From Verrucomicrobiales bacterium (GTDB taxonomy: Bacteria; Verrucomicrobiota; Verrucomicrobiia; Verrucomicrobiales; V1-33): a DNA stretch of 64,000 nt. Position 1 is the first letter of the stretch. Every line of letters starts with the position of its first letter. The position numbers and the translations under genes are program-made. This document shows, piece after piece, positions 5,392 through 64,000 of the stretch. Where the stretch lies: NCBI GenBank assembly GCA_050998515.1, contig JBPCQC010000012.1, positions 1,376 to 65,375 of the forward strand, read 5' to 3'. The notes under the pieces were generated by a model. The model did no database searches, was not told the origin of the DNA, and was given only the letters and a program-made list of their open reading frames with translations.

Positions 5392-5427
5392 CGTGCCGCC
5401 ATATTTGCCGAGCGCTGGAAATTCGCA

Positions 5428-28530: not shown

Positions 28531-30084
28531 CTACGCGAGCAATTCGGAAATAACTTCTCCGTGAACGTCGGTCAGGCGACGATCGATGCCATCGTGACGG
28601 AAGGTCAGTTGGGTGTGATCGATGCCTAACAGATGCAGAATCGTCGCGTGGATGTCGTAAACCTGGGTGGGCTGTTCTCGATTCTGCGGTTTGTAACCCC
28701 ATTGGTCGCTGGGTCCATGGGAGATCCCGGCTTTGATACCACCACCGCACAGCCAGTTGGTGAAACAAAAGGGATTATGGTCGCGCCCTTTGCCGCCCTG
28801 GCTGCTCGGCATGCGTCCAAATTCGGTTGTCCAGAGCACAATGGTGTCATCGAGCAATCCGCGTTGTTTCAGATCCTTGATGAGCGCGGAAGCACCCCTG
28901 GCCATGCCGCGCGCCAACGGTCCGTGATCCCGTTCGACATCCTCGTGTGAGTCCCAGTTGCGGCGGGGAAAGGCGTTGTCATTTCCGCTCCAGACCTGGA
29001 CAAAACGCACTCCGCGTTCGATCAGCCGCCGCGCGGCGAGACATTTTCGGCCAAAGTAATCCATCTCCTCGGCAACGTTAATTTCCTTGGGCCATTCCTT
29101 GCGTGAGGTGTCGATGCCATACATGGCAAGAGTCGCGGGCGATTCCCGCGAAAGGTCGAGCGCTTCCGGGGCCGCCAGTTGCATACGGGCGGCGAGTTCG
29201 TAGCTGCGAATGCGGGCTTCCAGGCGCTCGTCGATTTTTCGGCTCGCTGCGTGGACGCGATTGAGTTGCCCGAGCACGGCAGCGCCCTCTCGTTCGCCTG
29301 CGGGAGTAATAAAGTCACCTTGCTTTGCCGGAAAAAGGTCCGCGATCGGTGTTGCCGTGCCTGGATAAATCACCGTGCCCTGGTGTTGTCCGGGCAGGAA
29401 GGCACTGTCCCAATTCTTGGTCCCGTTCGAAGCCAGCCCACGATGATCCGGCAGCACCACAAAAGTGGGAAGGTTGTCGCTCAGACTGCCCAGTCCGTAA
29501 CTCACCCAACTGCCGGCAGCAGGAAATCCGGGCCGATTGAATCCAGTCGTCTGCAAAAGTGTGCCTTGACTGTGAACCCCCGTTTTTCCCACCACATTGT
29601 GAACGAAAGCCAACTCATCGATGACGGCGCCAAGTTCAGCCACGACTTCACTGATCTGTTTCCCGCATCGGCCGTGGGATTTGAACTCCCAAATCGGCCG
29701 GAGCCATGGCCCAAGGCCGTCCTGAAACGCCTCGACGTGCTCGCCGAAACTGCTGGGCTGGCCGTGCCGCTTTATCAGCTCGGGTTTGTAGTCAAACAAA
29801 TCGATATGACTCGCCGCCCCAGCCATGAAAAGCTGAATGACGCGCGTTGCCCGCGGAGGTCGATGCATGACGCCCAACGTGCCGCGATTCAATACGGAGG
29901 CGGGCCCCCGCTCACTCCCTAACAAGTACGACAAAGCCATTCCACCCAGCCCCCCACCGCCGCCCGCCAGGAGTTCACGCCGCGTCAATCGACTCGACCA
30001 TCCTGCCCTCACTGTCGGGAGGGCGGTTGGGTTTTCGAGCCTTGCTGCGGTGCTCATCATTTTAGTCGACGAAGATGAACTCAT
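28531..30084 (-). CDS. DUF1501 domain protein (sulfatase-like fold, Tat-type leader)
   Basis: SRLTRRELLAGGGGGLGGMAL leader, FVQVWSGNDNAFPRRNWDSHEDV, WTTEFGRMP, GRDHNP. The ATG at 30084 overlaps the upstream gene by 23 nt. An alternative ATG at 30060 sits 1 nt after that gene's stop codon. Confidence 0.85.
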   Translation of the reverse strand: MSSSSSTKMMSTAARLENPTALPTVRAGWSSRLTRRELLAGGGGGLGGMALSYLLGSERGPASVLNRGTLGVMHRPPRATRVIQLFMAGAASHIDLFDYKPELIKRHGQPSSFGEHVEAFQDGLGPWLRPIWEFKSHGRCGKQISEVVAELGAVIDELAFVHNVVGKTGVHSQGTLLQTTGFNRPGFPAAGSWVSYGLGSLSDNLPTFVVLPDHRGLASNGTKNWDSAFLPGQHQGTVIYPGTATPIADLFPAKQGDFITPAGEREGAAVLGQLNRVHAASRKIDERLEARIRSYELAARMQLAAPEALDLSRESPATLAMYGIDTSRKEWPKEINVAEEMDYFGRKCLAARRLIERGVRFVQVWSGNDNAFPRRNWDSHEDVERDHGPLARGMARGASALIKDLKQRGLLDDTIVLWTTEFGRMPSSQGGKGRDHNPFCFTNWLCGGGIKAGISHGPSDQWGYKPQNREQPTQVYDIHATILHLLGIDHTQLTFRHDGIDRRLTDVHGEVISELLA

Positions 30085-49668: not shown

Positions 49669-49864
49669 ATCGCAGAGCTTCGAAAGGAGGGATGAGCGCC
49701 GCGAGTCCGCTGGTTTTCGCTTTCACGGCAGGCAGTCGGGCATCACGACGGGTTGCGCACTGTCACCCCAGACCGTAGGTTTCACGTTGCTAGCCTGGTC
49801 GGGCAAAGGCAGCAGGATTGCCTGCCGCACTTTGCTTTCCGTAACCTCTGCTCCCTCACCAACC

Positions 49865-51409
49865 ATGTTGCTCAAACGTTGCCTCGCGGCCACCAGCCTG
49901 ATCGGCCTGCTCTCATTGTTTTCTCGAGCCGAGGAAGCCAAATCGGATGATCCGAGCAAACCCGTTTCCTATTGGAGACAGATCCGTACGATTTTTCAGG
50001 CCAACTGCACCGGGTGTCATCAGCCGGCCAAGGCCAAGGGTGAATTGATCATGACAGATTTTGCCGCTTTGATCAAAGGTGGCGCAGACGCCGGGCCGGG
50101 CATCGTTCCGGGCAAACCGGACGAGTCGTCGGTGGTGAAGAATATTACTCCTGGTCCAGATGGGAAAGCCGAGATGCCCAAAAAGGCCGATCCCTTAAGA
50201 CCGCAGGAAATCTCGCTAATTCGCCAGTGGATTCAGGAAGGGGGCGTTGATGACACCCCTGCGCACGCAAGGCAGGTGTGGGATGCGGAGCATCCGCCGG
50301 TTTACGCCCACGCTCCGCTGGTCACAGCGATCGATTTTTCTCCAGACGGACAACTCCTCGCCGTTAGCGGTTTCCATGAGACGTTGCTGGTGCGAGCCGA
50401 TAACGGAGCGCTGATTGGGCGCCTCATTGGGCTTAGTGAACGGATCGAGTCGGTAAGTTTCTCTCCGGACGGCCGACGGTTGGCGGTGGCAGGCGGCCAG
50501 CCCGGACGCATGGGCGAAGTCCAGGTCTGGGACGTCGCCGAGAAAAAACTCGTGCTCTCACAGCCTGTCACTTTCGATACGGTCTATGGCGCTTCCTGGT
50601 CCCCTGATGGCAAGAACGTGGCCTTCGGGGGGGCGGATAAATCCGTGCGAGCCATCGAGGCTGACACAGGCAAGCAGACCTTTTTTGTGCTTACGCACGA
50701 AGACTGGGTGCAGGACACCGCCTGGTCAGTGAAAGGCGACCAGGTGTTTTCTGCCGGGCGCGACATGACCGCGAAGCTCAGTGATTTCGCGACGCAGCGA
50801 TTCATTGATAACATCACATCTATCACGCCGGGCGCGCTCAGAGGCGGATTGCAGGCCCTCTCGCGGCATCCTGAGCGCGACGAGATTCTGGTCGGCGGCA
50901 GCGACGGCGAGCCCCGCCTCTATCGAACCAACCGGGAAGTCGAACGCAAAATCGGGGACGACTCGAATCTCATCCGCAAGTTTCCACCGATTGAAGGCCG
51001 CATTTGGGCGGCAGATTTCGCGCCTGACGGCAAAAGTTTCGCCGTCGGTGGCACCCGCACCGATGAAAATGCCACCGGGTCGCTGATCAAAGGCATCGTC
51101 GCGTTTTATGGCTGCGATGTGGATAGCAAGTTACCTGAAGACCTCAAAGCCATTTTGAGGAAGGAATCTTTCAGCCGAAATGCCGACGAGAAGGCGAAAG
51201 TCGAGGCTTATCTGACGCAAGGGGTGGCCCTCTTAAAAAAGATCGAGCTGCCCACGGGCGTTTATGCGGTGACCTACCAGCCGGACGGCTCGTTCCTGGC
51301 CTGCGCCGGGGCCGACGGCCTTGTTCGCCTGCTCAAGCCCGGGGACGGTACCATCGCGATGGAACTGCAGCCGTTTCCGCTCTCGACGGTCCAGACTGCC
51401 GCGAAATAG
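49865..51409 (+). CDS. PSCyt1-type cytochrome c domain fused to WD40 beta-propeller, secreted
   Basis: ATG 49865 (MLLKRCLAATSLIGLLSLFSRAEE). CTGCH at 50006..50020 with GKAEMPKK..ISLIRQWI, followed by WD40-like repeats (FSPDG..LAV.G, VWD). Confidence 0.8.
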   Translation: MLLKRCLAATSLIGLLSLFSRAEEAKSDDPSKPVSYWRQIRTIFQANCTGCHQPAKAKGELIMTDFAALIKGGADAGPGIVPGKPDESSVVKNITPGPDGKAEMPKKADPLRPQEISLIRQWIQEGGVDDTPAHARQVWDAEHPPVYAHAPLVTAIDFSPDGQLLAVSGFHETLLVRADNGALIGRLIGLSERIESVSFSPDGRRLAVAGGQPGRMGEVQVWDVAEKKLVLSQPVTFDTVYGASWSPDGKNVAFGGADKSVRAIEADTGKQTFFVLTHEDWVQDTAWSVKGDQVFSAGRDMTAKLSDFATQRFIDNITSITPGALRGGLQALSRHPERDEILVGGSDGEPRLYRTNREVERKIGDDSNLIRKFPPIEGRIWAADFAPDGKSFAVGGTRTDENATGSLIKGIVAFYGCDVDSKLPEDLKAILRKESFSRNADEKAKVEAYLTQGVALLKKIELPTGVYAVTYQPDGSFLACAGADGLVRLLKPGDGTIAMELQPFPLSTVQTAAK

Positions 51410-51584: not shown

Positions 51585-53048
51585 TTACGCCAGCACCGCC
51601 GGAATGATCTGCGCGGTATTTTGAACTCCGGTCAGCCGTTCGAGGCGGCCATTGGTCTGGAAATACAGCTTTTCGTGATTGACACCCATTGCTCTAAGGA
51701 TCGTGGCGTGCAGGTTTTTAAAGGGAATTGGGTTTTCCGTGGCCATGAGCCCGAGCTCATCAGTGGCGCCCAGGCGAAGGCCGGGTTTGACTCCGCCCCC
51801 AGCCATCCAGATGGTGAAGCCGGCGCAGTTGTGCTGGCGCCCTCCGTCACCCTGCATCATCGGCGTGCGTCCAAATTCGCTGGCCCAAATGACGAGTGTG
51901 GTGTCGAGCAGTCCGCTTTGTTTGAGATCGGTCAGCAAAGCCGAGATCGGCTGATCGACCACGCGCGCGTGCGTTTCGTGATTTTTCGCCAGATTGCCGT
52001 GCGCGTCCCAGCCATCTTTTTCGTGCATGTCATAAAGCTGCACAAAGCGGACGCCACGTTCGACGAGCCGCCGGGCGAGCAGGCATTTGCGGGCAAATCT
52101 TACCGTCTCCTTGTCCTGATGCTCGAAGCCGTAACTCTTGCGAATGTGTTCCGGCTCCTTGTCGATGTCACCAACTTCCAGGGCCGCGGATTGCATGCGA
52201 TAGGCCAGTTCATAGCTCGCGATGCGCGCGTCCAGATCCGTGAACCCTGGACGCGTGGCGCGATGGAGCAGATTCAGTTCGCGCAACGCCTGAAAGGTCT
52301 GTGTCTGCGCGCCGGCGAACTCACCGGCCGGAATGAGGTCAAGCACCGGAGTCCCAGAATCGCGCAAACGCGTACCCTGAAATGCCGCCGGCAAAAAACC
52401 ATTGCTGTAGTTGGTCGCGCCGCCAAGTGGGCCAGCCTCGAAGAGCAAAACATAAGCCGGAAGGTTTTGGTTTTCGCTGCCCAGACCGTAAGTTACCCAC
52501 GATCCCATGCTGGCCTTCCCGCCCACGATGTCACCGGTGTGCAACTGGATGCTCGCCGGGCCATGGTTGTTGCTGTCGGCCTGCATCGAATGAATGACGC
52601 AGAGATCATCCACCTGCTTCGCCATGTGCGGCAACAGCTCGGAGACCCAAAGACCGGTTTGACCTCGCTGAGTGAACTTCCACGGGCTCGCCAGCAACTC
52701 GTCTTTGCAGCCTTTGAAAATGTTGGCAAAGCGCGTCGCCTCGACCGCCTTCCTAAATGACTCGGGCACCTTCTGACCGCCACGCTTCTGCAGCTCCGGT
52801 TTGTAATCAAAGGTGTCAACGTGAGACGGTCCGCCAACCATGAACAGAAAAATCACCGATTTCGCCTTGGGCGCGAAATGCGGTTGCCTCGGTTGATAGG
52901 GATTGACCGGGTCCACAACGACTGCGGTCGACGCCGCTGCCGCCCGCGTTTCACTCTGCATCAAAGCCTGCAACGCGAGCCCGCCAAACCCGCATCCGAA
53001 ACGGGTCAGGAAATGCCGGCGGTTCGACGAAGGCGAGATCACCGCCAA
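51585..53048 (-). CDS. DUF1501 domain protein (second copy)
   Basis: NRRHFLTRFGCGFGGLAL leader, FVQLYDMHEKDGWDAHGNL, WASEFGRTP, GRQHN. TTG start; no nearby ATG. Confidence 0.85.
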   Translation of the reverse strand: MAVISPSSNRRHFLTRFGCGFGGLALQALMQSETRAAAASTAVVVDPVNPYQPRQPHFAPKAKSVIFLFMVGGPSHVDTFDYKPELQKRGGQKVPESFRKAVEATRFANIFKGCKDELLASPWKFTQRGQTGLWVSELLPHMAKQVDDLCVIHSMQADSNNHGPASIQLHTGDIVGGKASMGSWVTYGLGSENQNLPAYVLLFEAGPLGGATNYSNGFLPAAFQGTRLRDSGTPVLDLIPAGEFAGAQTQTFQALRELNLLHRATRPGFTDLDARIASYELAYRMQSAALEVGDIDKEPEHIRKSYGFEHQDKETVRFARKCLLARRLVERGVRFVQLYDMHEKDGWDAHGNLAKNHETHARVVDQPISALLTDLKQSGLLDTTLVIWASEFGRTPMMQGDGGRQHNCAGFTIWMAGGGVKPGLRLGATDELGLMATENPIPFKNLHATILRAMGVNHEKLYFQTNGRLERLTGVQNTAQIIPAVLA

Positions 53049-53095: not shown

Positions 53096-53785
53096 TCACG
53101 ACCGCCGGAAAACAAAAAGGAAGTTATTAAAAGGCAGCACGCCTGAAAGACTTCGCACCTCCCCTTCCAACCCGACACCCTGCAATTGAGCCGCGATTGC
53201 CTCCCGGCTGGGATAACACACCGCGTGTTCGGCCATCCATGAAGTGCCCTTGGCAAACCGGTCGCCCACGTGAGTTAGGCGGAACCTCCAGTTTTTCTCC
53301 CTCAGACAAGTGCGAATGATGAGTTTGCCGCCCGGTGCGACACGGTCCGCCGCCGTTTCCAATAAGGCTGTCTGTTCCGCCGCTGTGCAGAATTGCAGCG
53401 CGTCGAGAATGGCCACGTCCCCGCAGTGGGAAGGCAGACCTTTACGGGCATCGCCCAACTTAAATGTGGTCGCCGAATCGCCCTTCATGATTCGAGCCGC
53501 CACCGCGATTTTCTCCCCATCGTAGTCACAGCCGTGAATGGGAGCCGAGAAGCCGCATTCACGAAGATAACACGCCAGCAACCCTGGGCCGCACCCGATA
53601 TCCAGCAACGAATGACGGCTCGAGTAAAGCTCTCGCGCCACCTCCCGATATACCGGATCCAGAAGCAATTTGCAAAACACGTAGGGAGCGTAATAACGAA
53701 AAGGAAACCGCCGGCACAAACGCCAGGCCAGCACTTGATTTCGGCCACGACCGACTTCCAGGATTTTGCCCGCAGCAACCTTCAT
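53096..53785 (-). CDS. class I SAM-dependent methyltransferase
   Basis: Motif I LLDIGCGPGLLACYL, an acidic post-I residue (GCDYD), and GGKLII. Confidence 0.8.
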   Translation of the reverse strand: MKVAAGKILEVGRGRNQVLAWRLCRRFPFRYYAPYVFCKLLLDPVYREVARELYSSRHSLLDIGCGPGLLACYLRECGFSAPIHGCDYDGEKIAVAARIMKGDSATTFKLGDARKGLPSHCGDVAILDALQFCTAAEQTALLETAADRVAPGGKLIIRTCLREKNWRFRLTHVGDRFAKGTSWMAEHAVCYPSREAIAAQLQGVGLEGEVRSLSGVLPFNNFLFVFRRS

Positions 53786-53840: not shown

Positions 53841-55775
53841 TCATTCCTCGAAGCGAAGCCGGATGGCTTCGAAATAGCGTCTCACCTGCTGGCGCCGGCT
53901 TGGGGGCAACGCTTGTTCGTCAAACGCCTCTTCCTGAACCTTCACGAAATCCGCCGCCGTTTTCTTGGCGGCACGCAACGCTGCTTCTTCATGCGGCTGG
54001 CCTTCGATTTGCCGCACAAATGATTCGCCATCCTCGTTGATTGAGCCCGCGACCTCCCCCTGAGCCCCTGCGACCTTTGGTTTGCTGGGTGAATTGCCGG
54101 AAGGCAGATGCCCGCGCCCCGCGCGAAGCCCACCCTGGGCGGCCGCTCCCCCTTCGAGGCCTGGCGCGCTCAGGGCGGCCTTGGCAGCGGTGCCTGGGAT
54201 TGGGGCTGCCAGCGGCAAGGCCATTTCCGGCTGCCCTGCTGTGCCAGGAATCAAGGTCAGCGACTTAATATCAATGGGCAGTTTGCCGGTGCCGGGAATG
54301 ACCGAGCCACGGCCCTTCCCAAATTTTATCTCAGGAATTTTGCCCAGGCCTGGCACAGGCAGCTGGCTCGAATCCCCGCGCGCCCCATCAAGTTGTCCCA
54401 GCGGCGTCATATCAGGCATGGTCGAGGGCTGAGTGGCCGCCCCGCTTTGGTTGCCGGCGAGTTTTTTCATCCCCTGGTTGTTCTGGCCCATGATGGAACC
54501 GCCAGACTGGCGGAGTCGTTCAGCAAGTTTTTGTAATTCCTTTTGGGAATTCTCCCGCTGTTCCTGGCGCTCAAATTTCTCTGCGAGCTTCGCAAATTCC
54601 CCCGAGGCCGCGGGTGCCTCCTGCTTCTCCATATGCTGGTCGGCGGCGCCTACGTGCTGACCAACCATTTTCTTGCGGTCATCATCAGTGGCTTTATTCA
54701 TGGTGCGATCCAGTGCCTGGGCGATTCGCTCGGACGCTTCCGAGGTGAGCTGAGGGTTTTCGAGTTGATTGGCGATCTGGCGGGACTCTGCGCCACTTGT
54801 CCCGGCATTTCGGTCCCTGATGCCCGAGGCGAGATCCGCGGTGTCCGGGTGCTTGCGCATTTCCGCGAGCATTTGCTCGGACGCCCAAGCCGTATTATCG
54901 GCGCCGAGTTCTTTGGCGAGGTCTTCCGCCTCGCGCGCTCGCTTCTCGAGTTCGGCAAGCACCTCACGCGGCGTCATCTCCGCGGCATCCTTCAGCTTTG
55001 CCGCTGTCTCCTGGATCGATTTCTGCAATTCAGCAAGTCGGCGCCTTTCATCTTCACTCAGTTCCTTGATTTCAGCCGCTCGCTTCTCGGACACGAGCAG
55101 TTTCTCGGCTTCGTTTTTGGCGTTGGCGAGCATGCTCGCTGTCATTGGACTGTCTCCGGCCGAGAGTTGCGGCTTGAGCCATGGCACAAAAATCATCAGC
55201 AGGGCAAGGCTGGGGGCCAGCCATGTCCAGGTGGAGTGTGGCAGCCGCAGTTCTTGCTTCAGCGAGGCCTGCATGTCAGCCAGACCGTTGCCAGCGCGGA
55301 CAAGATGGAGTTCGCGACCGGGATCGACCTCCACGCCTTGTCTGGCAAGTTCCTCTTCGAAAATCAGGGCGCTGGAAAAGAGATCGCTACGTCCCGCAGC
55401 GCGGTCCCAGGCCGCGAGAGCTGCGTAGGGCGTGGGCCACCTGCGCCAGGAATAATTCAGTGCCATCAGCGCCCACGCTGCCAGCAGGACCATCACGATT
55501 GAAACTTCTGGAGCCCGTATGCCGGACAGCCGCAGGATAATGAGCACAGGCACCGCTGCCGCCACCAACCAAATGCCTTTTCGGAGACCCGCCAAAAAGT
55601 ACGTGAGCGCCAGCCGCCGAGTCACGCTTCGCGCGGCTGCTTGGAAACGGCCGGCCCACGGCACACCGCGGCTCGAAGGCGTGAAATCTTCGAGGCGGCC
55701 CGGTGTCCGGCCGGCTCGAGTGCGGCCCGAGGGTGGGCCGTCTCCAGACCGAGATGAGGCAGGCGGTTCCATCAT
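53841..55775 (-). CDS. hypothetical membrane protein with long coiled coil and G/P-rich region
   Basis: ATG overlaps the upstream stop (ATGA at 55772..55775). Hydrophobic helices GIWLVAAAVPVLIIL, VSIVMVLLAAWALMAL and WLAPSLALLMIFVPWL. E/K/A/Q-rich heptad-like middle. C-terminus ..PPSRRQQVRRYFEAIRLRFEE. Confidence 0.6.
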   Translation of the reverse strand: MMEPPASSRSGDGPPSGRTRAGRTPGRLEDFTPSSRGVPWAGRFQAAARSVTRRLALTYFLAGLRKGIWLVAAAVPVLIILRLSGIRAPEVSIVMVLLAAWALMALNYSWRRWPTPYAALAAWDRAAGRSDLFSSALIFEEELARQGVEVDPGRELHLVRAGNGLADMQASLKQELRLPHSTWTWLAPSLALLMIFVPWLKPQLSAGDSPMTASMLANAKNEAEKLLVSEKRAAEIKELSEDERRRLAELQKSIQETAAKLKDAAEMTPREVLAELEKRAREAEDLAKELGADNTAWASEQMLAEMRKHPDTADLASGIRDRNAGTSGAESRQIANQLENPQLTSEASERIAQALDRTMNKATDDDRKKMVGQHVGAADQHMEKQEAPAASGEFAKLAEKFERQEQRENSQKELQKLAERLRQSGGSIMGQNNQGMKKLAGNQSGAATQPSTMPDMTPLGQLDGARGDSSQLPVPGLGKIPEIKFGKGRGSVIPGTGKLPIDIKSLTLIPGTAGQPEMALPLAAPIPGTAAKAALSAPGLEGGAAAQGGLRAGRGHLPSGNSPSKPKVAGAQGEVAGSINEDGESFVRQIEGQPHEEAALRAAKKTAADFVKVQEEAFDEQALPPSRRQQVRRYFEAIRLRFEE

Positions 55776-57838
55776 TGAAAATCGTCGAGCAATTTTTCGA
55801 CCCGTCGCTGCACTTCAGGGTCTGGCGAAGTTTTAAGGGTTTCCTCGAGAACGGACTTGGCCATGAAGCCAAACTCCGCCAGCGCCGCGCTCGCTGCCTC
55901 CCGTTTTTCCCATTCATCACTGCCAAGTTCACGAACCAGCGCGGCGATCTTGATTCGAGTTTCATCGGAAACATGAGGGGTCGGCGTGTTGAATTCGACC
56001 AAATCATCCACCGGCACACGCCAGACGGCATCGCGGACCCGTATTGGCACCACGGGATCCTTCAATTGGCCCAGGATGGTGCCGCCGCCCCACAATTCGA
56101 TTTGAAAGGGCGGAGTGTCCTCGCTCCCGCCCGGTTCGCTTTCCTCCCGCGCATTGCGCAAAGTGCGAATGCTTTGGGGAGGAATCTGGATGGCCTTGAT
56201 GCTCGTGAGCACCGTCAAGGCCTCGGCCTCGATTTGGCCGAGCAGCCGCTGGCCGCCCGCGAGCAACACGTGAGGTTGTTCAAGCGCCCGCGGCTCGGCG
56301 CTTTCTTCCCGACTCTTCGCCAGCGCACCGGACGTCACCAGGGCGCGAATATGTCCAGGAGGAAAGGTCTTTTCCGCAAACAGCCGCGTCCGAAGCAACA
56401 CCTCGGGACCCGACAAGAAACCGAAAAAGCGGCTGCCATCCTTGAACTCGATATGGTGTCCGACGGCACCCTCATCGGTGGGCCCGAGCCACAAAATATC
56501 ATCCAGCGAAAAGCGCACCGGTCCCCAGGATGTGGTGCATTGAAAAACGGCCGCATCGTTAGCGGCCAGGGCGACTTGATCGCCGGAAAAAGTTGCCAGC
56601 AGAGCCGCCGTCTCCGGCGCCCACTTCCCTTCTTCGGCCGTGGCGCCGCGAACGAGCCTGTCCATCGTTGCGAGATCGAGATCGACCCGGGCCCCGCTGG
56701 GCATGACGAAGCGAAAGTCAGTTGCCTTTACCTGACCCGACAGCAATTGCCCATCCCGCAAGTAAACCCGCGTGCCCCCAGCGCCGCTGCGCGGGCCGCC
56801 GACCAGGGCCGCCACTTGCTCGAATGGAATGACAGCGGTTCCAAACTTCGTGGCGACGCTAAACTCGCCGCAGCTTGCAGTGCCAAAAAGTCGGGTCTTG
56901 TCGCCCATCGCCAGCACATCGGATTTCGCCCGCTCGACATCCAGGGTCTCCAGTCCGCCGCTGGCAAGCAACGCTGCTGGACCGACGCCGGTTCCGTGAT
57001 TGAAATTCACCAGGAGGGGCAGATCCTCCCGCCTGACGGTTTTCAAAAACCGGCTGCCGGCCGCGGCCTTGAAAAGCTTCTCCATGGCTGCCTTGTCGGT
57101 TTCATTGATGGGAGGAACAAGGGCGATGGTGTAGCACAAGGCGACGGTTTGCCCGGCGGGCACGCTCAGGGTGTAGCTAAAGTTCCACTCGAATTGGCTG
57201 CGCTTGCCAAATGACGGTTTGTTTTTGCTGGCAGAACTCGATAGGGTGAAGAGGACTGCTTTCTGGCCCTGTTGCTTCGAGGTGATGAGAAGCGACGTTT
57301 CGTTTTTGGTCAGCGCGCCGGGGTTGGTAACCCCGCGGTCACTCACGGCGGTCTTCACTGGATTGGAAAAATTGTTTCGGTACTCGACAGCCGCGATTAC
57401 CGGTGCGCTGCCGGGATTGTGAAAAAGATCGACGTATCGCATTGCGCCGTCTTTTTCCAGCAGGCGGACGCGGCGCGTGACCTGGAGACCGAGCAGCGGC
57501 TGTTGCCCGGGAAGAACGAATTCCTTTCCATCGGGAGTCATCAACGGCTGGTAATTGTAGAATTGCTGGCCGCCGATATGGAGCATGAGGATGTTGTTAA
57601 AGAACGAATTCCCGGTGTTCTGAAGGAACCCGTAATTGTTGATGCTCCATTGGTTGCCCTTGTCATCCTGCACCGGCTGCATGTTCGCGGGAACTAGGTT
57701 TTCCGGCGCGGCCGCCTTGCGCGGGGCTGCGTCCATCCCCCCGCCCATGACACAAGCCACCACCACGACACGTCGCCACCATGCCGGTGCCAGCACCCGC
57801 CGGGACAAAAATCGAAAAGTCGGCTTCCGTTGAGTCAT
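55772..57838 (-). CDS. secreted hypothetical protein, paralog B (N-domain / 6 repeat modules / HEAT-like tail)
   Basis: ATG 57838 overlaps the stop of paralog A (ATGA at 57835..57838). Leader RRVLAPAWWRRVVVVACVMGGG. Aligns along its length with paralog A, and has an extra C-terminal SDEWEKREAASAALAEFG..DPEVQRRVEKLL. Confidence 0.65.
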   Translation of the reverse strand: MTQRKPTFRFLSRRVLAPAWWRRVVVVACVMGGGMDAAPRKAAAPENLVPANMQPVQDDKGNQWSINNYGFLQNTGNSFFNNILMLHIGGQQFYNYQPLMTPDGKEFVLPGQQPLLGLQVTRRVRLLEKDGAMRYVDLFHNPGSAPVIAAVEYRNNFSNPVKTAVSDRGVTNPGALTKNETSLLITSKQQGQKAVLFTLSSSASKNKPSFGKRSQFEWNFSYTLSVPAGQTVALCYTIALVPPINETDKAAMEKLFKAAAGSRFLKTVRREDLPLLVNFNHGTGVGPAALLASGGLETLDVERAKSDVLAMGDKTRLFGTASCGEFSVATKFGTAVIPFEQVAALVGGPRSGAGGTRVYLRDGQLLSGQVKATDFRFVMPSGARVDLDLATMDRLVRGATAEEGKWAPETAALLATFSGDQVALAANDAAVFQCTTSWGPVRFSLDDILWLGPTDEGAVGHHIEFKDGSRFFGFLSGPEVLLRTRLFAEKTFPPGHIRALVTSGALAKSREESAEPRALEQPHVLLAGGQRLLGQIEAEALTVLTSIKAIQIPPQSIRTLRNAREESEPGGSEDTPPFQIELWGGGTILGQLKDPVVPIRVRDAVWRVPVDDLVEFNTPTPHVSDETRIKIAALVRELGSDEWEKREAASAALAEFGFMAKSVLEETLKTSPDPEVQRRVEKLLDDFQ
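55988..56914 (-). repeat. six tandem 40-45 aa modules in paralog B
   Basis: Examples: VYLRDGQLLSGQVKATDFRFVMPSGARVDLDLATMDRLV, HVLLAGGQRLLGQIEAEALTVLTSIKAIQIPPQSIRTL, FQIELWGGGTILGQLKDPVVPIRVRDAVWRVPVDDLVEF. Confidence 0.6.
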
Positions 57839-59748
57839 TGCTGAGTTTCCCGTTTCACCGCCATGATGTGAGCGACCGGGACTTCCCAATTGCCCGTGGC
57901 GGTCTTGATTTTGAGTGACGGTATGGGCAACAGGCCATCGAATTGACCGCCGGATGTCAAGGCGAGGTGGAAAACGGGCGCGCTGTCGGTTCCGCCTTCG
58001 ATCCGGCGCAAGAGACGCAAATCGGCGGGGGTGAACACGGTCTGGGTCGCGCCGGAAACCAAAGTTAGAGATTCATGGGCGATCACTCCGGCGACGAGGT
58101 TGCCGCCCTTGAGCAGGCAAAAGTCGCCCTTGCACGCTTCGAGGTCCGGAATCTCCTCCGGCTCGGCGGAGAAATCAGGAAGTTCCTTTGCAGGTTGCGA
58201 GAATACAGCGAGGTCGGCAATATTCAGCGTGACGGTGCCGAGGCGCGGTGATCGCGCTGTGAACTCTCGCTGAGTCGGAAAAACCGTGAGCTTCGATCCA
58301 TCGCTCAGCCAGAGCCGGCAGGCGGTGGCTGGCGCCTTGAGATGATAAAAAGCCACGATTTGGTTCATGCTTGCCTCGACCGGGCCCCACGGACTGGTTA
58401 GCGCAAGTGTCTCAGCATCCGTCAACTGCAGCGGCAATACCTCGCCGGAGTTGAGTGCGGCCAAAAAGGCTGGCGGCGGCGAAACCACACCGTCGTCCGG
58501 TGAAGTTTTTAGGACAATGGCCTCGATCGCTTCAGCGGTCAGGTTAATGCTCCAGCCTTTGGCGCCGCCCATTTTCCACCCCGGCAGGCTCAGAGGACCG
58601 GTGAGCACGGTGCCGTCGCGCAGAAATACGCGCGGCAAGCGCCCGCGCCCGGCTCCGCCCTGCACCGCCGCTATTTCCGGCAGTGGAATGGTCATGGTGC
58701 CAAAGCGGGATTCGACCGTCACCGGTTCGCCTTGCGCCTGTCCGGAGAGCAGTGAATTAGCACTCATCCAATAGACATCCTCCTCGCCCCGCTCGATGCC
58801 CAGCCTCTCGCACAACCTCCGAAGACCGCCCAGCAGCGCGTCCGCAGCCGGCGCTTCGCTTTCGCTTGCGTCCTTAAGCGAAAAATTGACCACCGTCTCA
58901 GCGAGGTCGGGCGGCATGCGCGGGCGGATGAGCCGGCTGCCGCGCACAAATGCTTCGGCCACCCCCTTCGCCTGGTCAGGAGTCAGGCCTGGTCTCTGCA
59001 GCAGCCAATAAAGCACCGAGATGCTTTTGCCGGCGGGCACAGTCACCTCCCACATTGCCACGTGCCGTGCCTTGCTGTTCCCGTCGCGGTCTTCGACTTT
59101 AAAAACGGGGCGGGGCTCGGCGCGCGGTTGCGCGAGCAAAAAGAGCACAGCGGCCTTCTGACTCTCAGCGTCCTGAGTTACCAGAAGCCCGGCATTGTCC
59201 CCGCCGAGGTCCGGCCCGGTCCACGTTCGACCGTCCAGTCTCGATATGGCCTCGACGCCATCGCCAAAGTCGGTCCGCACTTCGAGTTTGACCGCTTTCG
59301 CCGCACTCCCTGGATTCTTCACGGTGTCGATGAACCGTGCGCCGCCCCGTTCGTGGTCGAGCCAGATATGGCGCGCGATCTCCAGCTCTCCGGACTTTCC
59401 GCGCAACTGATAAGCCGGAAGAGCGTCATTGGACTCGGCTTCGGCCGCATTAAATTCTTTTCCATCGATCATTAACACCGCGCCCCGCTCGAACGCGCCG
59501 ATGCGTTGATCCGCGACATTGCTCAAGCCAATATCGCCATCATGGTTCAGGCCCCAACGGCATCCAAATTTGTCGGTAACTCGCGGAAAACGCGAAGGAA
59601 CGGCCTCGAGTTTCTCCCACTCTTTGATTTCGACTGCCGATGGCGCATCCGCGATGGCCGGTTTCGCAGCCGGCTCATCCGCTTGCGCAGCCTGAAAGAG
59701 CCACATCAAGATCAGGCACCAAACCGAACGCGCCAGGATTTGCTTCAC
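57835..59748 (-). CDS. secreted hypothetical protein, paralog A (N-domain / 6 repeat modules)
   Basis: GTG start with signal peptide MKQILARSVWCLILMWLFQAAQA. The N-domain shares ARFIDTVKNPGSAAKAVKLEVRTDF / VTVPAGKSISVLYW with paralog B (MRYVDLFHNPGSAPVIAAVEYRNNF / LSVPAGQTVALCYT). Confidence 0.65.
   Translation of the reverse strand: MKQILARSVWCLILMWLFQAAQADEPAAKPAIADAPSAVEIKEWEKLEAVPSRFPRVTDKFGCRWGLNHDGDIGLSNVADQRIGAFERGAVLMIDGKEFNAAEAESNDALPAYQLRGKSGELEIARHIWLDHERGGARFIDTVKNPGSAAKAVKLEVRTDFGDGVEAISRLDGRTWTGPDLGGDNAGLLVTQDAESQKAAVLFLLAQPRAEPRPVFKVEDRDGNSKARHVAMWEVTVPAGKSISVLYWLLQRPGLTPDQAKGVAEAFVRGSRLIRPRMPPDLAETVVNFSLKDASESEAPAADALLGGLRRLCERLGIERGEEDVYWMSANSLLSGQAQGEPVTVESRFGTMTIPLPEIAAVQGGAGRGRLPRVFLRDGTVLTGPLSLPGWKMGGAKGWSINLTAEAIEAIVLKTSPDDGVVSPPPAFLAALNSGEVLPLQLTDAETLALTSPWGPVEASMNQIVAFYHLKAPATACRLWLSDGSKLTVFPTQREFTARSPRLGTVTLNIADLAVFSQPAKELPDFSAEPEEIPDLEACKGDFCLLKGGNLVAGVIAHESLTLVSGATQTVFTPADLRLLRRIEGGTDSAPVFHLALTSGGQFDGLLPIPSLKIKTATGNWEVPVAHIMAVKRETQQ
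57850..58776 (-). repeat. six tandem 40-45 aa modules in paralog A
   Basis: Examples: VFLRDGTVLTGPLSLPGWKMGGAKGWSINLTAEAIEAIV, RLWLSDGSKLTVFPTQREFTARSPRLGTVTLNIADLAVF, FCLLKGGNLVAGVIAHESLTLVSGATQTVFTPADLRLL. Confidence 0.6.
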
Positions 59749-59878
59749 GAGCCTATCTTAACTGAGCTTCCACCGAAGCAAAACGGTGAAATGCCGGTCG
59801 CTATGGCTGGCCAGGCTTCAGCCCAGCCGAAGCAAATTCGGGTCGGCAGTTGCCGAATGCTGCACGGGGCCCCGGCCA

Positions 59879-60298
59879 TTAAAACAGCAACAGGCCAACA
59901 TCATCTTCATTGAGCTCGCCTGCCTCGGTCACCTCCAATAGACCGTCAATCTCATCGAGCAGTGCAAGCTCCAACACCATTTGCCCCACGATGGCATCCT
60001 GGGGGACGGCCTCCGTTGAGACGGGCAATGGTGATGGTGCGCTTCGGGCAATAGCATTGTCGGGTTGATCGAGTTGCCACCAGACCACGCCGCTTAAAAT
60101 CAGCACCCCCGCCCAAACCAGCCGCAAGCGAGGAGCGAAGATTTTGGCCAGGAAGACCCCGCCCCAATGGGCAGGCGACTCGATTTGCCGGGCGCAACGC
60201 ACGACATTGTGGGAGAAAAACGGATCAACAGGCACGGGCCGTGCCTGTTTGAGCAACGCCCAGGCAGGGTCTCGATATTCTGGAATATCCGGATTCAT
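59879..60298 (-). CDS. small single-pass membrane protein, anti-sigma-factor-like N-terminus
   Basis: ATG 46 nt after the rpoD stop. ALLKQARPVPVDPFFSHNVVRCARQ, then TM helix LRLVWAGVLILSGVVWW, then an acidic C-terminal tail. Confidence 0.45.
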   Translation of the reverse strand: MNPDIPEYRDPAWALLKQARPVPVDPFFSHNVVRCARQIESPAHWGGVFLAKIFAPRLRLVWAGVLILSGVVWWQLDQPDNAIARSAPSPLPVSTEAVPQDAIVGQMVLELALLDEIDGLLEVTEAGELNEDDVGLLLF

Positions 60299-60344: not shown

Positions 60345-62084
60345 TCAGCCTGCCGTCAAAGTGGCTTCGAGAAAACCTTCCAGGTGGCGGATGCGGGTAG
60401 GATGGCGAATTTTTCGGAGCGCCTTGGCTTCGATTTGACGGATTCGCTCGCGGGTAACTTGAAACTGGCGGCCCACTTCCTCGAGAGTTCGGCTGTAACC
60501 ATCGACAAGTCCAAACCGCTGTTCGAGGACCATGCGTTCGCGCTCGCTGAGGGTATCGAGGACATCTTTTATTTTGTCCTTCAGAATGCTGAAGCTTGTA
60601 ATTTCCACGGGATTGTCCGCTTTCTTATCCTCGAGGAAATCGCCGAAGCGCGCGTCTTCGCCCTCCCCGACCGGAGTCTCGAGGGAAATCGGTTGCTGGG
60701 CCATACGCAGCACTGCCCGAACCCGTTCGACCGGCAAATGGACTTCCTCGGCAATCTCATCCGAACTCGGTTCGCGGCCAAATTCCTGCACCAACTGCTT
60801 CTGGACCCGAAGCAGTTTGTTAATCGTCTCGATCATATGGACCGGAATGCGAATGGTGCGCGCCTGGTCAGCGATCGACCTCGTTATGGCCTGGCGGATC
60901 CACCAGGTGGCGTAAGTCGAGAACTTGTAACCGCGGCGGTACTCGAACTTCTCGACCGCCTTCATGAGACCCATGTTGCCCTCTTGAATGAGGTCAAGGA
61001 AGCTGACGCCGCGATTGGTGTATTTTTTGGCAATAGAAATAACGAGGCGAAGATTCGCCTCGACCATTTCCGTCTTTGCTTTCAACGCTTCGCGCAACCA
61101 GTGTTTCAATTCTTTGCAGGCGTCGGTGAAATGCTCGGGCGAATGCCAGACCCCGGTTTCAAATTCCTCAGCCGCCCCTGCATCTGAGCCGCCGCTCAGA
61201 CATCGTTCGATGCCGCGCCATTCCTCGAGCTTGCGTTCGGCGACGGCGGCCAGCTCCTCGACGACCTTTTGCTTGAAGGATAATTTGCGATACACCTTTT
61301 CCAGCGCGCCTATGGCGATCTGAAACGCCTCTGCGGCGCCGTTGCGGGCGTTTTTGCAGCGCTTTTTGTAAGCAACCGACGCATCCTGGCGCCGTTGATC
61401 TATCTCCTGGCAGAGCTTCGGCAATGCGCGCAAATACCGGTCGCGACTTTGCACTTTCTTGTCGAGCACCAATCGGTCGAGGCGTTCCCGGCCATCGTGC
61501 AGCTTTTCCGCGAGATCCATGTAAGCATCGGCCGTGAAGCCAAACCCATGAATGATGCGCTCGACATGGCTTTCGGAGATTTCTATGCGTTTGGAGATTT
61601 CCACCTCCTGCTCGCGCGTCAGCAGCGGCACCTGGCCCATTTGCTTCAGATACTGGCGGACCGGATCGTCCAGCACATCGAGCCGCGCCTCACTCGCCTT
61701 TTGGGCGGCGGTCTCATCGGACTCGGAAGCTCCGCTCTTCCGGACACGTTGCAGGTCTTTGAACCGATCCACCTCGGCGGCGTCGATCACGTTGAATTCC
61801 ATCGACCGCAGGCGCTCAAGAATCTGCTCGATGATGTCCGGCTCGATGCAGTCCATCGGGAGCGTGTCGTTCAGATCATCGTAGGTCAGGTAATCCTGTT
61901 CCTTGGCCAGTCTAACCAGATCACGCAACCGGGCTTGGATATCGGGATGGTCGACGCTGGTATAGCGAACGCCGATGGGCTTGGGAGCGGACAGTTCGCT
62001 ATTGCCGGTCTCAGGCAACGGGTACTTGCGAGGCCGCCCCCGTTTCCGCTTCACGGGCAGTTCATTTATAAAAGGCTCGGCCAT
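60345..62084 (-). CDS. rpoD: RNA polymerase primary sigma factor (sigma-70 group 1)
   Basis: ATG 62084 (MAEPFINE..). Region 1.1 [13 protein letters not shown]; region 2 [56 protein letters not shown]; region 4 [30 protein letters not shown]. Confidence 0.95.
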
Positions 62085-62192
62085 TGGGTGAGGTCTCACA
62101 CGGGGGATGTAAGAGAAACGCAATAAGGAAATAGGCTCAAACCCGCGCACCGCAACCGGATTTTTCTTTTGTGGAAGTGCTGAGCGCCTGGA

Positions 62193-64000
62193 TCAAAAGG
62201 GAACAAGGCTTGCGGGCGTCGCCGCCGTGCCCTTTAAGTGGCGCAGTTCACGGTGGCACTCAACAACCTCCTGGGTCAATGTTAGGAGATCCTCTGGAGG
62301 CAATCCCGGCATCTTCAGCCGCGCCTGTTTTTGATCGATGAGGTTTTTCAACCGTTGAGTTTTAAGATGAAAAAAAGCGGCACGCGCATCGTCGACCCCG
62401 CGTGCAGGCGACTCCTCGGTAATCAACGCGCTGACGAGAGCCTGTTCGGGAGGAGGCAGTGCTGCCACAAATGCGGACACACTGGCCGGGTGGCCGGGAT
62501 CAAGGTTATTGGCCTGCCAAACGCGCGTGAGAACTTCGGTTTCGGCGAGGTCTGCCAGCCAGTGCGAATCGCCGCTGTTCAGCAGCCACACTCTGGCTTC
62601 CACATCTGTGAGCGCCAATTTGCACAACATGCGCACCGCTTTATTTGCGATGATCAGCGGGGCCTCGCGGGCGGGGACTGCGATGCGGTCTTCGCGCTCG
62701 CCTTCGCGCGTCAGGTCACGCGCAGCGCGGGCAACGCGCCCGCGAATGTCCGCAGTCGGCACTGCCAGTCTGGTCGCAGCCGTGTTGATGGCGTCTTCTT
62801 GCGCGGCTTTCTCGGTGAGCGACGCTATGCTGCCCGCCAGTTCATCGACCACACGGAGCCGCTCTCTCACCCCGCTCAAATTCACGCCTCGGGTGAGATG
62901 CGTCATCTGAAAATCAAAGAAGCTGGCTGCCGCTTTCAATTTTTCCCGCAAGGCATCGATCCCCCGTGCGCGAATGAGCGAATCCGGGTCTTCGCCGCCG
63001 GGCAATTCGGCCACGCGTACAAAAACGCCCGCTCGGGCCAATTCACGAAAGGCTCGCCCAGCCGCTTTATACCCGGCGTCGTCCGAATCAAAGCAAAGAA
63101 CTGCCTCGTCACTCAATCGGCGGATCGTCCGCGCGTGGTGATTGGTGAACGCCGTTCCCAACGGCGCCACCACGTTTTCGATCCCATTTTCAAAACACGA
63201 GATGAGATCAAGCTGGCCTTCGCAGATAATCGCACACTGTGACTTGGCAATTGAGCGCCGGCTCTTGTCGAGTCCAAAAAAAACGCGGCCCTTGTTGAAG
63301 ATCGGGGTCTCCGGCGAATTGACATATTTGGCCGCGCCGGTGTCTTTCTGCAGCGCGCGGCCGCTGAACCCGACTACGTCACCGTGCTCATTGCAGATGG
63401 GAAACATCAACCGTCCCCCAAAGCGAAACCAGACCGATCGCTGGCGGCGTCCGCCGCCTTCGTCCCCCAAGGAAATCAATCCGGCTTCGACCAGTGATTG
63501 CTGCGAATATTTTTTCTCATTCGACCAGGCGAGAAGAGCGGCGGCATGTGGTGGCGCGTAGCCAATCTGCCAGCGGCGCGCGTGTTGTCCTTCCAGGCCC
63601 CGGCTTTTCCAATAGCGCCGCGCCGCCTCGGCCATGGCATCCTTCAAGAGCAACTCATGAAACCACTGGGCAATATCGCGATGGAGGGCGAGCAGATCCT
63701 TCCGCTGCCGGTTGGCGGAGGCTGTTTCCGCAGCATCCGCCACCTCGATGATCGCGATTCCGGCCCGTTCGGCAAGGCGTCGCAACGCATCCGGGAAAGA
63801 GACGTGTTCATAAAGTTCGACGAATTTGATAACGCCCCCACCAGCGCCACAGCCGAAACAGTGGAATGATCCGCGCGCCGGATTCACCATGAAAGAAGGC
63901 GAACGTTCGTTGTGAAATGGACACAACGCCTTGAAATTTGCCCCGGCTCGTTTCAGAGGAAAATACGAGCTGATGACCGCCACGATGTCGCTGGCGGCCA
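62193..64000 (-). CDS. dnaG: DNA primase, N-terminal few residues beyond the right window edge
   Basis: Zinc finger CPFHNERSPSFMVNPARGSFHCFGCGAGG. Toprim AIICEGQLDLIS and CFDSDDAGYKAA. The frame stays open past the track GTG (63983) to base 64000 (..AASDIVAVISSYF). Confidence 0.9.
   Translation of the reverse strand, partial: AASDIVAVISSYFPLKRAGANFKALCPFHNERSPSFMVNPARGSFHCFGCGAGGGVIKFVELYEHVSFPDALRRLAERAGIAIIEVADAAETASANRQRKDLLALHRDIAQWFHELLLKDAMAEAARRYWKSRGLEGQHARRWQIGYAPPHAAALLAWSNEKKYSQQSLVEAGLISLGDEGGGRRQRSVWFRFGGRLMFPICNEHGDVVGFSGRALQKDTGAAKYVNSPETPIFNKGRVFFGLDKSRRSIAKSQCAIICEGQLDLISCFENGIENVVAPLGTAFTNHHARTIRRLSDEAVLCFDSDDAGYKAAGRAFRELARAGVFVRVAELPGGEDPDSLIRARGIDALREKLKAAASFFDFQMTHLTRGVNLSGVRERLRVVDELAGSIASLTEKAAQEDAINTAATRLAVPTADIRGRVARAARDLTREGEREDRIAVPAREAPLIIANKAVRMLCKLALTDVEARVWLLNSGDSHWLADLAETEVLTRVWQANNLDPGHPASVSAFVAALPPPEQALVSALITEESPARGVDDARAAFFHLKTQRLKNLIDQKQARLKMPGLPPEDLLTLTQEVVECHRELRHLKGTAATPASLVPF

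Follow-up and report, generated by a model that had tools for sequence, protein, structure and literature searches.

Three genes beside rpoD in a Verrucomicrobiales bacterium: a probable detached envelope module of a Bat-like MoxR system

Gene content of the locus

The window analysed here is a stretch of 64,000 nucleotides of Verrucomicrobiales DNA in which four open reading frames, designated A, B, C, and D, follow dnaG and rpoD on the minus strand (Table 1). The identities of rpoD and dnaG exceed the NCBIfam cut-offs, with RpoD matching at 589 bits against a cut-off of 555 bits. The stop codon of rpoD lies 46 nt from A, which is in turn separated from B by 130 nt, and D is followed after 55 nt by a methyltransferase gene. 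B, C, and D are joined by two ATGA overlaps, in each of which the start codon of a gene overlaps the stop codon of the preceding one. The four ORFs, their spacings, and both overlaps had been described in an earlier, sequence-only reading of this DNA and were all found as described. The same reading proposed translational coupling, in agreement with the overlaps themselves and with the situation in relatives, where about 21 of 27 loci keep the 4-nt overlap between B and C.

Full-length homologs exist for C and D, with E values from 0 to 1e-50, and in A and B, the two genes of the block that were scored frame by frame, the annotated frame is the one preferred by codon usage; the block genes are therefore more than chance ORFs. 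The codon-position base composition of the trio formed by B, C, and D also resembles that of the neighbouring genes.

Table 1. Features of the locus, in window coordinates; residue numbers refer to the protein named
Feature	Position	Strand	Description
ORF A	59879-60298	minus	139 aa, single-pass membrane ORF separating rpoD from B
Hairpin	60227-60249		strong hairpin with a T-run behind it, separating rpoD from most of A
Gene B	57835-59748	minus	637 aa, GTG start, predicted exported protein, paralog of C
B/C overlap	57835-57838	minus	ATGA, ATG of C overlapping the stop of B
Gene C	55772-57838	minus	688 aa counted from ATG, predicted exported protein
C residues ~48-245	57104-57697	minus	predicted beta-supersandwich, galactose-mutarotase-like / YidC-P1-like fold (AF2)
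C residues ~303-620	55979-56932	minus	six predicted tandem ~47-aa five-stranded beta modules (DSSP of AF2 model)
C residues ~625-687	55778-55966	minus	predicted C-terminal three-helix HEAT-like tail
C/D overlap	55772-55775	minus	ATGA, ATG of D overlapping the stop of C
Gene D	53841-55775	minus	644 aa, predicted inner-membrane protein
D residues 68-202	55170-55574	minus	predicted TM1-TM2 hairpin, ~70-aa conserved loop, TM3; AF2 pLDDT around 90
D residues ~213-441	54453-55139	minus	predicted all-helical domain, AF2 pLDDT 90-98
D residues ~446-595	53991-54440	minus	predicted disordered G/P/Q-rich spacer, ~150 aa, AF2 pLDDT below 50
D residues ~596-644	53844-53990	minus	conserved C-terminal helical hairpin (predicted)
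Methyltransferase	53096-53785		Methyltransf_23, E 1e-11

The exported paralogs B and C

As had been claimed from the sequence, B and C are true paralogs, with 28% identity across 608 aa (E 1e-49). In almost every related locus, an ortholog of B precedes C. A search of 5.8 billion proteins gave only 32 clusters of C homologs, and those with a name are from Verrucomicrobiales MAGs. The proposed location of the block in the envelope is plausible; what had been called secreted corresponds to N-termini that look like signal peptides when judged by eye (...LFQAAQA/DEP in B), by which both proteins would be exported.

The AF2 model of C (mean pLDDT 85) divides the protein into a supersandwich domain, a row of beta modules, and a helical tail. 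Once aligned, the six modules share the pattern h-x-h-x-x-G-x-x-h-x-G-x-h...T-x-x-G...h-P-x-x-x-h, and the tail helices are predicted at residues 625-637, 643-670, and 674-687, with a weak match to HEAT_2 that stays under the cut-off (E 0.009). B has the same architecture of a beta-supersandwich plus six small beta modules; its alignment with C stops before the helical tail, which is missing from B.

Foldseek searches of the PDB with the model of C retrieved the periplasmic domain of YidC (P1) and the N-terminal domains of GH65, GH94, and GH63 proteins, with E values of 4e-7 to 1e-4, target TM-scores of up to 0.49, sequence identities of 9-15%, and alignments of about 260-360 columns that span the N-domain only. 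The likeness is thus one of predicted fold only; it holds for the ~200 N-terminal residues of C and extends to B through its paralogy. Whereas YidC carries a membrane insertase core, C has none. A role of B and C as GH65/GH94/GH63 enzymes was also considered and rejected, since the model of C lacks the catalytic (alpha/alpha)6 domain and shows the six small beta modules after the supersandwich instead; neither protein has a glycoside hydrolase (GH) match in Pfam.

The earlier statement that these proteins belong to no characterised family holds for every collection searched: B, C, and D have no match above noise in Pfam, NCBIfam, or PADLOC, and neither single-sequence searches of the PDB nor family profiles of C and D run against it returned anything meaningful. 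An assignment of any of the three to BatD (PF13584) or to other Bat proteins was dismissed as well, no Pfam Bat or TPR family being matched above noise.

The membrane protein D

The family of D is larger, with 197 representative clusters at E<1e-30; the 90 homologs collected include proteins from Roseimicrobium gellanilyticum and Prosthecobacter fusiformis. The sequence-only reading had described three hydrophobic helices, a long E/K/A/Q coiled coil, a G/P-rich stretch, and a C-terminal tail; the hydrophobic segments, the G/P-rich stretch, and the tail were recovered, and so was a helical region rich in E/K/A. By hydropathy, the segments cover residues 68-86, 88-106, and ~184-202, and in the alignment of homologs the loop preceding the third one contains the invariant residues D124, A136, and H157, together with a nearly invariant W123. 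Across 40 homologs, the N-terminal flank carries 5.7 K+R against 0.8 D+E, and these positive-inside statistics point to a topology with the N-terminus in and the C-terminus out, in which the large C-terminal part of D would be periplasmic.

This part comprises the helical domain, which bears the conserved motifs WAS and H-x-DTADL, and a spacer of low complexity whose length varies across the family. The protein closes with a hairpin of two predicted helices (residues 596-620 and 625-643, pLDDT 76-81) with the signature E-E-x-A-L-D-x(3)-L-P-P-x-R-R-x-x-V-R-R-Y-F, where E615, A617, L623, P624, R627, R633, Y634, and F635 are invariant columns in 40 sequences; the tail of D ends in ...RRYFEAIRLRFEE. 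Every invariant residue of the D family is held by the D protein of the window.

Structure-based searches, which had been suggested as a check for these proteins, gave a fold match for the N-domain of C and no structural relative of D in the PDB, where the best Foldseek hit has an E value of 0.75. None of 40 D homologs matched a Pfam family, apart from scattered sub-threshold matches, and a tblastn search of 72,556 plasmids with the C-terminal motif of D found no match.

In alphaproteobacteria, MoxR-DUF58 operons encode low-complexity membrane proteins of the DUF4175/TIGR02302 type. These are encoded beside MoxR and have TM helices at the N-terminus, a long region that is helical or of low complexity, and a conserved C-terminus. 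Even though the architecture and the MoxR context of D (see below) are analogous, there is no detectable sequence relationship, and D was rejected as a member of this family: it matches neither DUF4175 (PF13779) nor TIGR02302 at E<=1, and the Pfam search of the 40 homologs likewise left DUF4175 unmatched.

The trio in related loci

Synteny was compared across 32 species-level Verrucomicrobiales loci with a C homolog, and the count of MoxR genes was limited to the 25 of them with at least 1.2 kb of DNA downstream of D. A MoxR gene comes directly after D in 22 of these 25 informative loci, at distances of mostly 12-111 nt, and the complete order B-C-D-MoxR-(~1450-aa TPR/beta-propeller)-DUF58-BatA(vWA) is present in 18 loci; three further loci from other sources give the same operon picture. 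In these relatives, MoxR is an AAA_3 protein (PF07726, E 1.4e-58), the vWA-like DUF58 gene is matched at E 8.5e-28, the membrane protein BatA consists of BatA_N and VWA_2, and the ~1450-aa giant combines TPR_19 (3e-13) with PQQ_2 (1.5e-16) in what would be a BamB-like beta-propeller. B-C-D is therefore a block conserved in Verrucomicrobiales, mostly together with the MoxR set, and the tentative link that the sequence-only reading had drawn between the tail of D and Bat/MoxR-type clusters is supported by this synteny. Its remark that no MoxR, DUF58, or vWA genes are present here also holds: tblastn finds no homolog of MoxR, DUF58, BatA, or the TPR+PQQ_2 giant anywhere in the 64-kb window.

The absence of these genes from the window, combined with the synteny of the relatives, suggests that the trio is a detached module of a Bat-like system. 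Our preferred reading, to which we give a probability of roughly 0.6, is that B-C-D constitutes the envelope module of a Verrucomicrobiales-specific MoxR-DUF58-vWA ('Bat-like') system, here split off from the rest, and that its adjacency to rpoD has no functional meaning. The gene neighbourhood speaks for an association of the trio with the MoxR set, not for a mechanism.

A detached module may also be a dying one, and the trio could be a decaying or functionless remnant of the break-up of the operon, no longer expressed as a working unit. It is indeed parted from MoxR and the rest, and fragmentation of the operon is seen in the closest clade: two of the nearest relatives (L005 and L006, 61% identity) have no MoxR within 1.2-2 kb after D, another one (L001) has MoxR with DUF58 and BatA not nearby, and one locus (L038) carries a heavily frameshifted copy. 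However, in the window B, C, and D are all intact and full length, the invariant residues of D and both 4-nt overlaps are kept, the codon-position base composition is like that of the neighbours, and the codon score of B favours its annotated frame, which makes decay highly improbable.

A different function could be imagined for the trio, in which B and C bind glycans in the periplasm or at the surface and the trio captures or processes polysaccharides independently of MoxR, with the supersandwich as the binding domain, the modules as a stalk, and D as the membrane anchor, and in which the linkage to MoxR reflects co-regulation or assembly only. The N-domain does resemble the non-catalytic supersandwich of GH65/GH94/GH63 and galactose mutarotase-like proteins, although YidC P1 shares this fold without a glycan role and the TM-scores are modest (at most 0.49). 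A solo C-type gene adjoins GH18 and a CotH/LTD/CHB_HEX protein, an arrangement from which the B/C fold appears able to work outside a MoxR context, and the trio occurs without MoxR in the window, L005, and L006. Nevertheless, no CAZyme or CBM family was matched in Pfam or NCBIfam, and glycan-utilisation genes never recur beside the trio, while MoxR-DUF58-BatA do in most loci; we regard this function as unlikely. A possible link to the mucin utilisation loci of Akkermansia found no support and was set aside. A. muciniphila is absent from the loci with a C homolog. Of the mucin loci, MUL2 is made up of amuc_1099-1102, and two of its four genes are pilus-related, one coding for a PilM protein and the other for a type IV pilin-like product (PMC13174399).

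The whole MoxR-vWA-propeller cluster, B-C-D included, could alternatively be a biological-conflict ternary system, either anti-phage or NTP-dependent. The relatives' MoxR also matches bpMoxR (PF20030, E 1.8e-11) and the giant neighbour has a beta-propeller, but the same MoxR scores 197 bits against AAA_3 and 44 bits against bpMoxR, and its partners DUF58 and BatA are typical of housekeeping MoxR-proper/Bat clusters. In PADLOC, nothing matches B, C, D, or the giant protein, and no effector-like domains were detected; a conflict role seems very unlikely to us.

ORF A and the rpoD neighbourhood

The sequence-only reading had joined A to the trio in a four-gene block and, from its position next to the sigma factor, raised the possibility of an envelope-to-transcription signalling module tied to RpoD, with A as an anti-sigma-like transducer. 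All genes are on the same strand with short gaps between rpoD, A, and B, and the codon usage of A, which encodes a single membrane pass, resembles that of coding sequences. Nonetheless, A has no homolog besides itself in 5.8 billion proteins and none in metagenome contigs, and it is missing from every related locus, both the 32 species-level Verrucomicrobiales loci and the others. A never appears beside B-C-D elsewhere; it is lineage-specific and lies outside the conserved module, which consists of three genes instead of four.

No search supports the anti-sigma-like label either: Pfam and NCBIfam return no domain for A, and specifically no anti-sigma domain, and PADLOC gives nothing above noise for it. 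A was thus rejected as an anti-sigma factor on the grounds of its missing domain and homologs and of its neighbour, which is the housekeeping RpoD, not an ECF sigma factor. As A is without any homolog, no conserved sigma pairing can exist. Between rpoD and most of A there is also a strong hairpin with a T-run behind it; a promoter scan of the region, of a kind uninformative for this phylum, found no sigma-70-like site.

The linkage to rpoD itself, which had been put forward for checking, is not conserved, as no rpoD or dnaG gene turned up in the 10 kb around the trio at any of the 32 species-level loci or at the remaining ones. The signalling idea thereby loses its only basis; with the synteny not conserved, it is for the most part refuted and is left with next to no probability. 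The adjacency of rpoD and the trio looks like a lineage-specific rearrangement that arose by chance, and the case carries a lesson for annotation: the tempting step from adjacency with rpoD to sigma-factor signalling does not follow and is corrected here.

On the other side of the trio, the methyltransferase was discarded as a conserved partner, as there is only generic SAM-fold similarity (E 0.014 and 2e-4) and no methyltransferase adjoins the trio in related loci. Methyltransferases are found near MoxR in Roseimicrobium and Prosthecobacter.

Relation to Bat systems and proposed role

The closest known systems are the Bat/MoxR-DUF58-BatA operons, such as batI of B. fragilis, those of Leptospira, bb0170-0176 of Borrelia, and RL3499-3502 of Rhizobium leguminosarum, which have envelope or stress phenotypes and an undefined mechanism (PMC5700661). 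Bat operons are widespread, and work on Bacteroides, spirochaetes, Rhizobium, and Riemerella connects them with aerotolerance, resistance to stress, and the integrity of the envelope, leaving their client and structure undefined (PMC5700661, PMC11834572). In the relatives, the trio is contiguous with the gene set that defines these operons, namely a MoxR-proper AAA+ (AAA_3), DUF58, BatA_N+vWA, and a TPR protein (PMC5700661), and both share an envelope location and an undefined mechanism. Contrary to the known Bat operons, however, three novel genes without counterpart among BatA-E precede MoxR, the TPR partner is the TPR+propeller giant instead of a small BatC or BatE, and the trio of the window has no MoxR, DUF58, or vWA genes. 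The trio is, in short, a new and uncharacterised add-on to a known, poorly understood envelope system, by which the Verrucomicrobiales version gains three families without a Pfam or NCBIfam model, one of which, D, also lacks a relative in the PDB.

If the trio is indeed the envelope module of such a system, the three helices would anchor D in the inner membrane, with its N-terminus and the ~70-aa loop in the cytoplasm, where D could meet the cytoplasmic MoxR/DUF58 pair. The periplasmic part of D would comprise the helical domain, the long flexible G/P/Q spacer, and the small conserved hairpin. B and C, produced in a fixed ratio through translational coupling and each consisting of a supersandwich domain and a rod of six beta modules, may form a periplasmic heteromer that docks on D and, where these proteins exist, also on the TPR/propeller giant and on BatA through its periplasmic vWA domain; a BatA-type vWA domain faces the periplasm in Borrelia BB0173 (PMC5700661). 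Assembly or remodelling of this scaffold would fall to MoxR, an AAA+ chaperone. While gene structure, paralogy, family distribution, synteny, and predicted folds are what the analysis shows, the topology, these physical interactions, and the trio's relation to MoxR as something assembled or as a client are inferred. By analogy with other Bat/MoxR operons, the cellular role could be in envelope integrity or stress tolerance.

A bolder version of this scheme, which we consider doubtful though worth stating, is that the trio, MoxR, the TPR/propeller giant, DUF58, and BatA make up an undescribed trans-envelope machine, in which D would be a TolA/TonB-like arm whose loop is worked by MoxR/DUF58 and which is coupled to the B/C rod and the outer TPR/propeller scaffold. 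The likeness is of the 'works like' kind only: D has an inner-membrane anchor, an extended helical segment, a P/G-rich spacer, and a small C-terminal domain predicted to be periplasmic. D resembles neither TolA nor TonB in sequence or structure, and it differs from them in having three TM segments in place of a single TM, together with a conserved loop predicted to be cytoplasmic; there is no ExbBD/TolQR-like partner, and the energy source linked to the trio would be a cytoplasmic AAA+ protein.

Should this bolder version be true, it would provide the first defined periplasmic client or structure for Bat/MoxR systems, and the detached trio of the window would be a periplasmic module that operates, or is assembled, with MoxR in trans. 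Two of the three families are predicted to be exported and one to be membrane-anchored, and no better candidates exist to date for the periplasmic product of assembly by a MoxR system of this kind. Within the trio, D appears to be the MoxR-linked core, since D-MoxR pairs without B and C occur in Roseimicrobium, Prosthecobacter fusiformis, and one more lineage; their presence in cultured Prosthecobacter and Roseimicrobium makes the link open to experiment.

Gene block and its synteny with MoxR

The four minus-strand ORFs downstream of dnaG-rpoD, A to D, form a real gene block that the sequence-only reading had described accurately, since the ORF listing and direct reading bore out all its coordinates. 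Codon-position base composition is alike across the tabulated genes from dnaG to DUF1501, and frame-specific codon scores favour the annotated frames of A, B and the methyltransferase. B and C are 28% identical across 608 residues (E 1e-49) and, judged on this alignment, are true paralogs.

Coordinates of the features discussed, within the window
Feature	Position	Strand	Remarks
DUF423	5014-5430	minus	about 50 kb from B
Very large ORF	13797-20522	minus	2241 aa
Second DUF1501	28531-30084
PSCyt1 (planctomycete cytochrome c) + WD40 protein	49787-51409	plus	convergent with the DUF1501 gene below
DUF1501, sulfatase-like	51585-53048	minus
SAM methyltransferase	53096-53785	minus	55 nt past D; Methyltransf_23, E 1e-11
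D	53841-55775	minus	644 aa; ATGA overlap on C stop
C	55772-57838	minus	688 aa; ATGA overlap on B stop
B	57835-59748	minus	637 aa; GTG start; 130 nt past A
ORF A	59879-60298	minus	139 aa; 46 nt past rpoD
Hairpin	60227-60249	minus	candidate rpoD terminator
rpoD	60345-62150	minus	NF004208, 589 bits (cut-off 555)
AT-hook-like stretch of RpoD	~62019-62051	minus	residues 34-44 of the 601-aa ORF
dnaG	62193-63983	minus	TIGR01391 (NCBIfam), E 1e-118

In three contexts of C homologs, B-C-D is followed directly by a gene for a MoxR AAA+ protein and, in two of the three, then by genes for a protein of ~1480 aa, DUF58 and BatA/vWA. Scanning a single genome for each GTDB species gave 32 loci, annotated with tblastn and with blastp on stop-to-stop ORFs, and MoxR lies directly 3' of D in 22 of the 25 that extend at least 1.2 kb past D; the full order B-C-D-MoxR-giant protein-DUF58-BatA is found at 18 loci. 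Pfam identifies the genes 3' of D in the relatives as AAA_3 (1.4e-58), DUF58 (8.5e-28) and BatA_N+VWA_2, and the giant protein carries TPR_19/TPR_14 and PQQ_2. The 4-nt B/C overlap (NTGA) is kept in about 21 of 27 loci, C and D are spaced by -4 to about +60 nt in most, and D and MoxR mostly by 12-111 nt, a spacing that supports an operon.

Several loci depart from this order. The closest species-level relatives, L005 and L006 (61% identity), have no MoxR within 1.2-2 kb past D, and at locus L001 MoxR is followed by unrelated genes. Solo C-type genes occur at L016 and at L008/L042, where the same gene (L042 10001-12031), 63% identical to C and without B or D, stands between a GH18 chitinase-like gene and one for a 1453-aa CotH/LTD/CHB_HEX protein, so that the B/C fold also occurs outside the MoxR context. 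Conversely, Roseimicrobium, P. fusiformis and one other lineage have D-MoxR pairs without B or C. These exceptions show a modular system, in which D and MoxR are the most tightly linked and B-C is a coupled pair added on the 5' side.

At the Roseimicrobium gellanilyticum locus (L037, 12969-21681), an unannotated 321-aa gene separates D from MoxR, and Abi_C, SAM-methyltransferase, 168-aa and metallophosphatase genes are inserted between MoxR and the TPR/propeller giant. At L038 (5146-11299; D 65% identical), on a long-read-style contig, B, C and D are in many frameshifted pieces, either through sequencing error or as a decaying copy, and MoxR still follows D.

Apparent detachment of B-C-D in the window

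No homolog of MoxR, DUF58, BatA or the giant protein is encoded within the 64-kb window, and B-C-D thus appears here detached from the rest of the MoxR operon. In several relatives (L001, L003, L006, L038), DUF423 is the usual neighbour just 5' of B, in the same orientation; its distance from B in the window fits a rearrangement, which is suggested to have moved B-C-D beside rpoD. The detached genes may rely on a MoxR gene in another part of the genome.

Families and distribution

Pfam, NCBIfam and PADLOC gave no match above noise for A, B, C or D, and PDB sequence searches with B and C singly, and with profiles of the C and D families, gave no meaningful match. Forty D homologs compared one by one with Pfam had no consistent match, DUF4175 being absent. 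The sequence-only reading had tentatively linked the tail of D to proteins of Bat/MoxR clusters, which fits the genomic context, although D could not be recognised as belonging to DUF4175/TIGR02302.

C has only 32 homolog clusters in 5.8 billion proteins (36-76% identity), and those with a source name are Verrucomicrobiales MAGs. D is spread more widely, with at least 90 homologs listed, among them those of Roseimicrobium gellanilyticum and Prosthecobacter fusiformis, both in culture; an exhaustive profile search gave 197 clusters at E<1e-30 and 391 at E<1e-10 (clustered at 50% identity). The labels of the MAGs bearing L008 (CAZQUC010000013.1), L005 and L028, 'uncultured Enterobacteriaceae bacterium' and 'uncultured Akkermansia sp.', look wrong, since the other named sources of the family are Verrucomicrobiales or Verrucomicrobiota; the 'Planctomycetaceae'/'Pirellulales' labels of L019, L030 and L031 are unconfirmed.

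Architecture of B, C and D

The AlphaFold2 model of C (26 sequences, mean pLDDT 85) begins with a hydrophobic, signal-like N-terminus of low confidence. Next come a beta-supersandwich (residues ~48-245) and a short linker of helical structure, then six ~47-aa modules of five beta strands each, which have a sequence pattern in common (~303-620), and finally a three-helix HEAT-like tail (625-687) that B does not have. In Foldseek searches of the PDB, the N-domain alone was matched (E 4e-7 to 1e-4; TM-score on target at most 0.49), by the periplasmic P1 domain of YidC and by the N-terminal domains, themselves non-catalytic and of galactose-mutarotase-like fold, of GH65/GH94/GH63 enzymes. C has no catalytic domain after the supersandwich, and the likeness is therefore one of fold and not of family membership.

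The model of D (40 sequences, mean pLDDT 74) is confidently helical over residues 40-441 and disordered over the G/P/Q-rich residues 446-595, and ends in a helical hairpin (596-643) bearing the invariant signature …EE-A-LD…LPP-RR--VRRYF. A Foldseek search of the PDB gave no structural relative (best E 0.75). Three hydrophobic segments are common to the family. The N-terminal flank holds on average 5.7 K+R versus 0.8 D+E, the 71-aa TM2-TM3 loop is net positive and the segment past TM3 net negative; by the positive-inside rule, D would have its N-terminus and loop inside and its C-terminal 440 aa in the periplasm.

Proposed role of B-C-D

On the best-supported reading, the MoxR-DUF58-vWA ('Bat-like') system has been elaborated in a way specific to Verrucomicrobiales, and B-C-D is the module of this version that faces the envelope, with B/C and D as new component families without models. 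Such operons pair a cytoplasmic MoxR chaperone-type AAA+ protein with vWA proteins, the BatA-type vWA domain of Borrelia BB0173 faces the periplasm, and stress or envelope defects have been described for mutants of several bacteria, with no defined mechanism (PMC5700661). D would link the cytoplasmic MoxR/DUF58 pair to the periplasm, where the translationally coupled paralogs B and C would form a heteromer that docks onto D as well as onto the TPR/propeller and vWA partners, with MoxR assembling or remodelling this scaffold. For a chaperone system that has long lacked an explanation, B, C and D are concrete candidates in the periplasm, and cultured relatives bear its D-MoxR core.

Adjacency to rpoD

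From the position beside rpoD and an 'anti-sigma-like' A, the sequence-only reading had raised the possibility of an envelope-to-transcription signalling module. The adjacency is found only in this genome; the 10 kb around the B-C-D trio hold rpoD, dnaG, A or the methyltransferase at 0 of the 32 species-level loci. A is an orphan without a domain, its sole match in the protein search being itself and metagenome contigs giving none, and is a lineage-specific ORF. The functional inference from rpoD adjacency is wrong, and the MoxR/Bat-like envelope context takes its place.

A GC-rich hairpin of 10 perfectly paired bp (AACAGGCACGG…CCGTGCCTGTT), with the T-run GATCCGTTTTT after it, lies 96 nt past the rpoD stop, inside the 5' part of ORF A (folding energy -21 kcal/mol, z = -2.0), and is a candidate for an intrinsic terminator of rpoD. 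If it works as such, it would separate rpoD transcription from the block, and would cast doubt both on read-through from rpoD and on where ORF A is annotated to begin. At the other end of rpoD, the AT-hook-like stretch belongs to an N-terminal extension, and translation probably starts in reality from Met 23, inside the ORF (MAEPF…). The convergent PSCyt1/WD40 and DUF1501 pairing beyond the methyltransferase is typical of the PVC superphylum.
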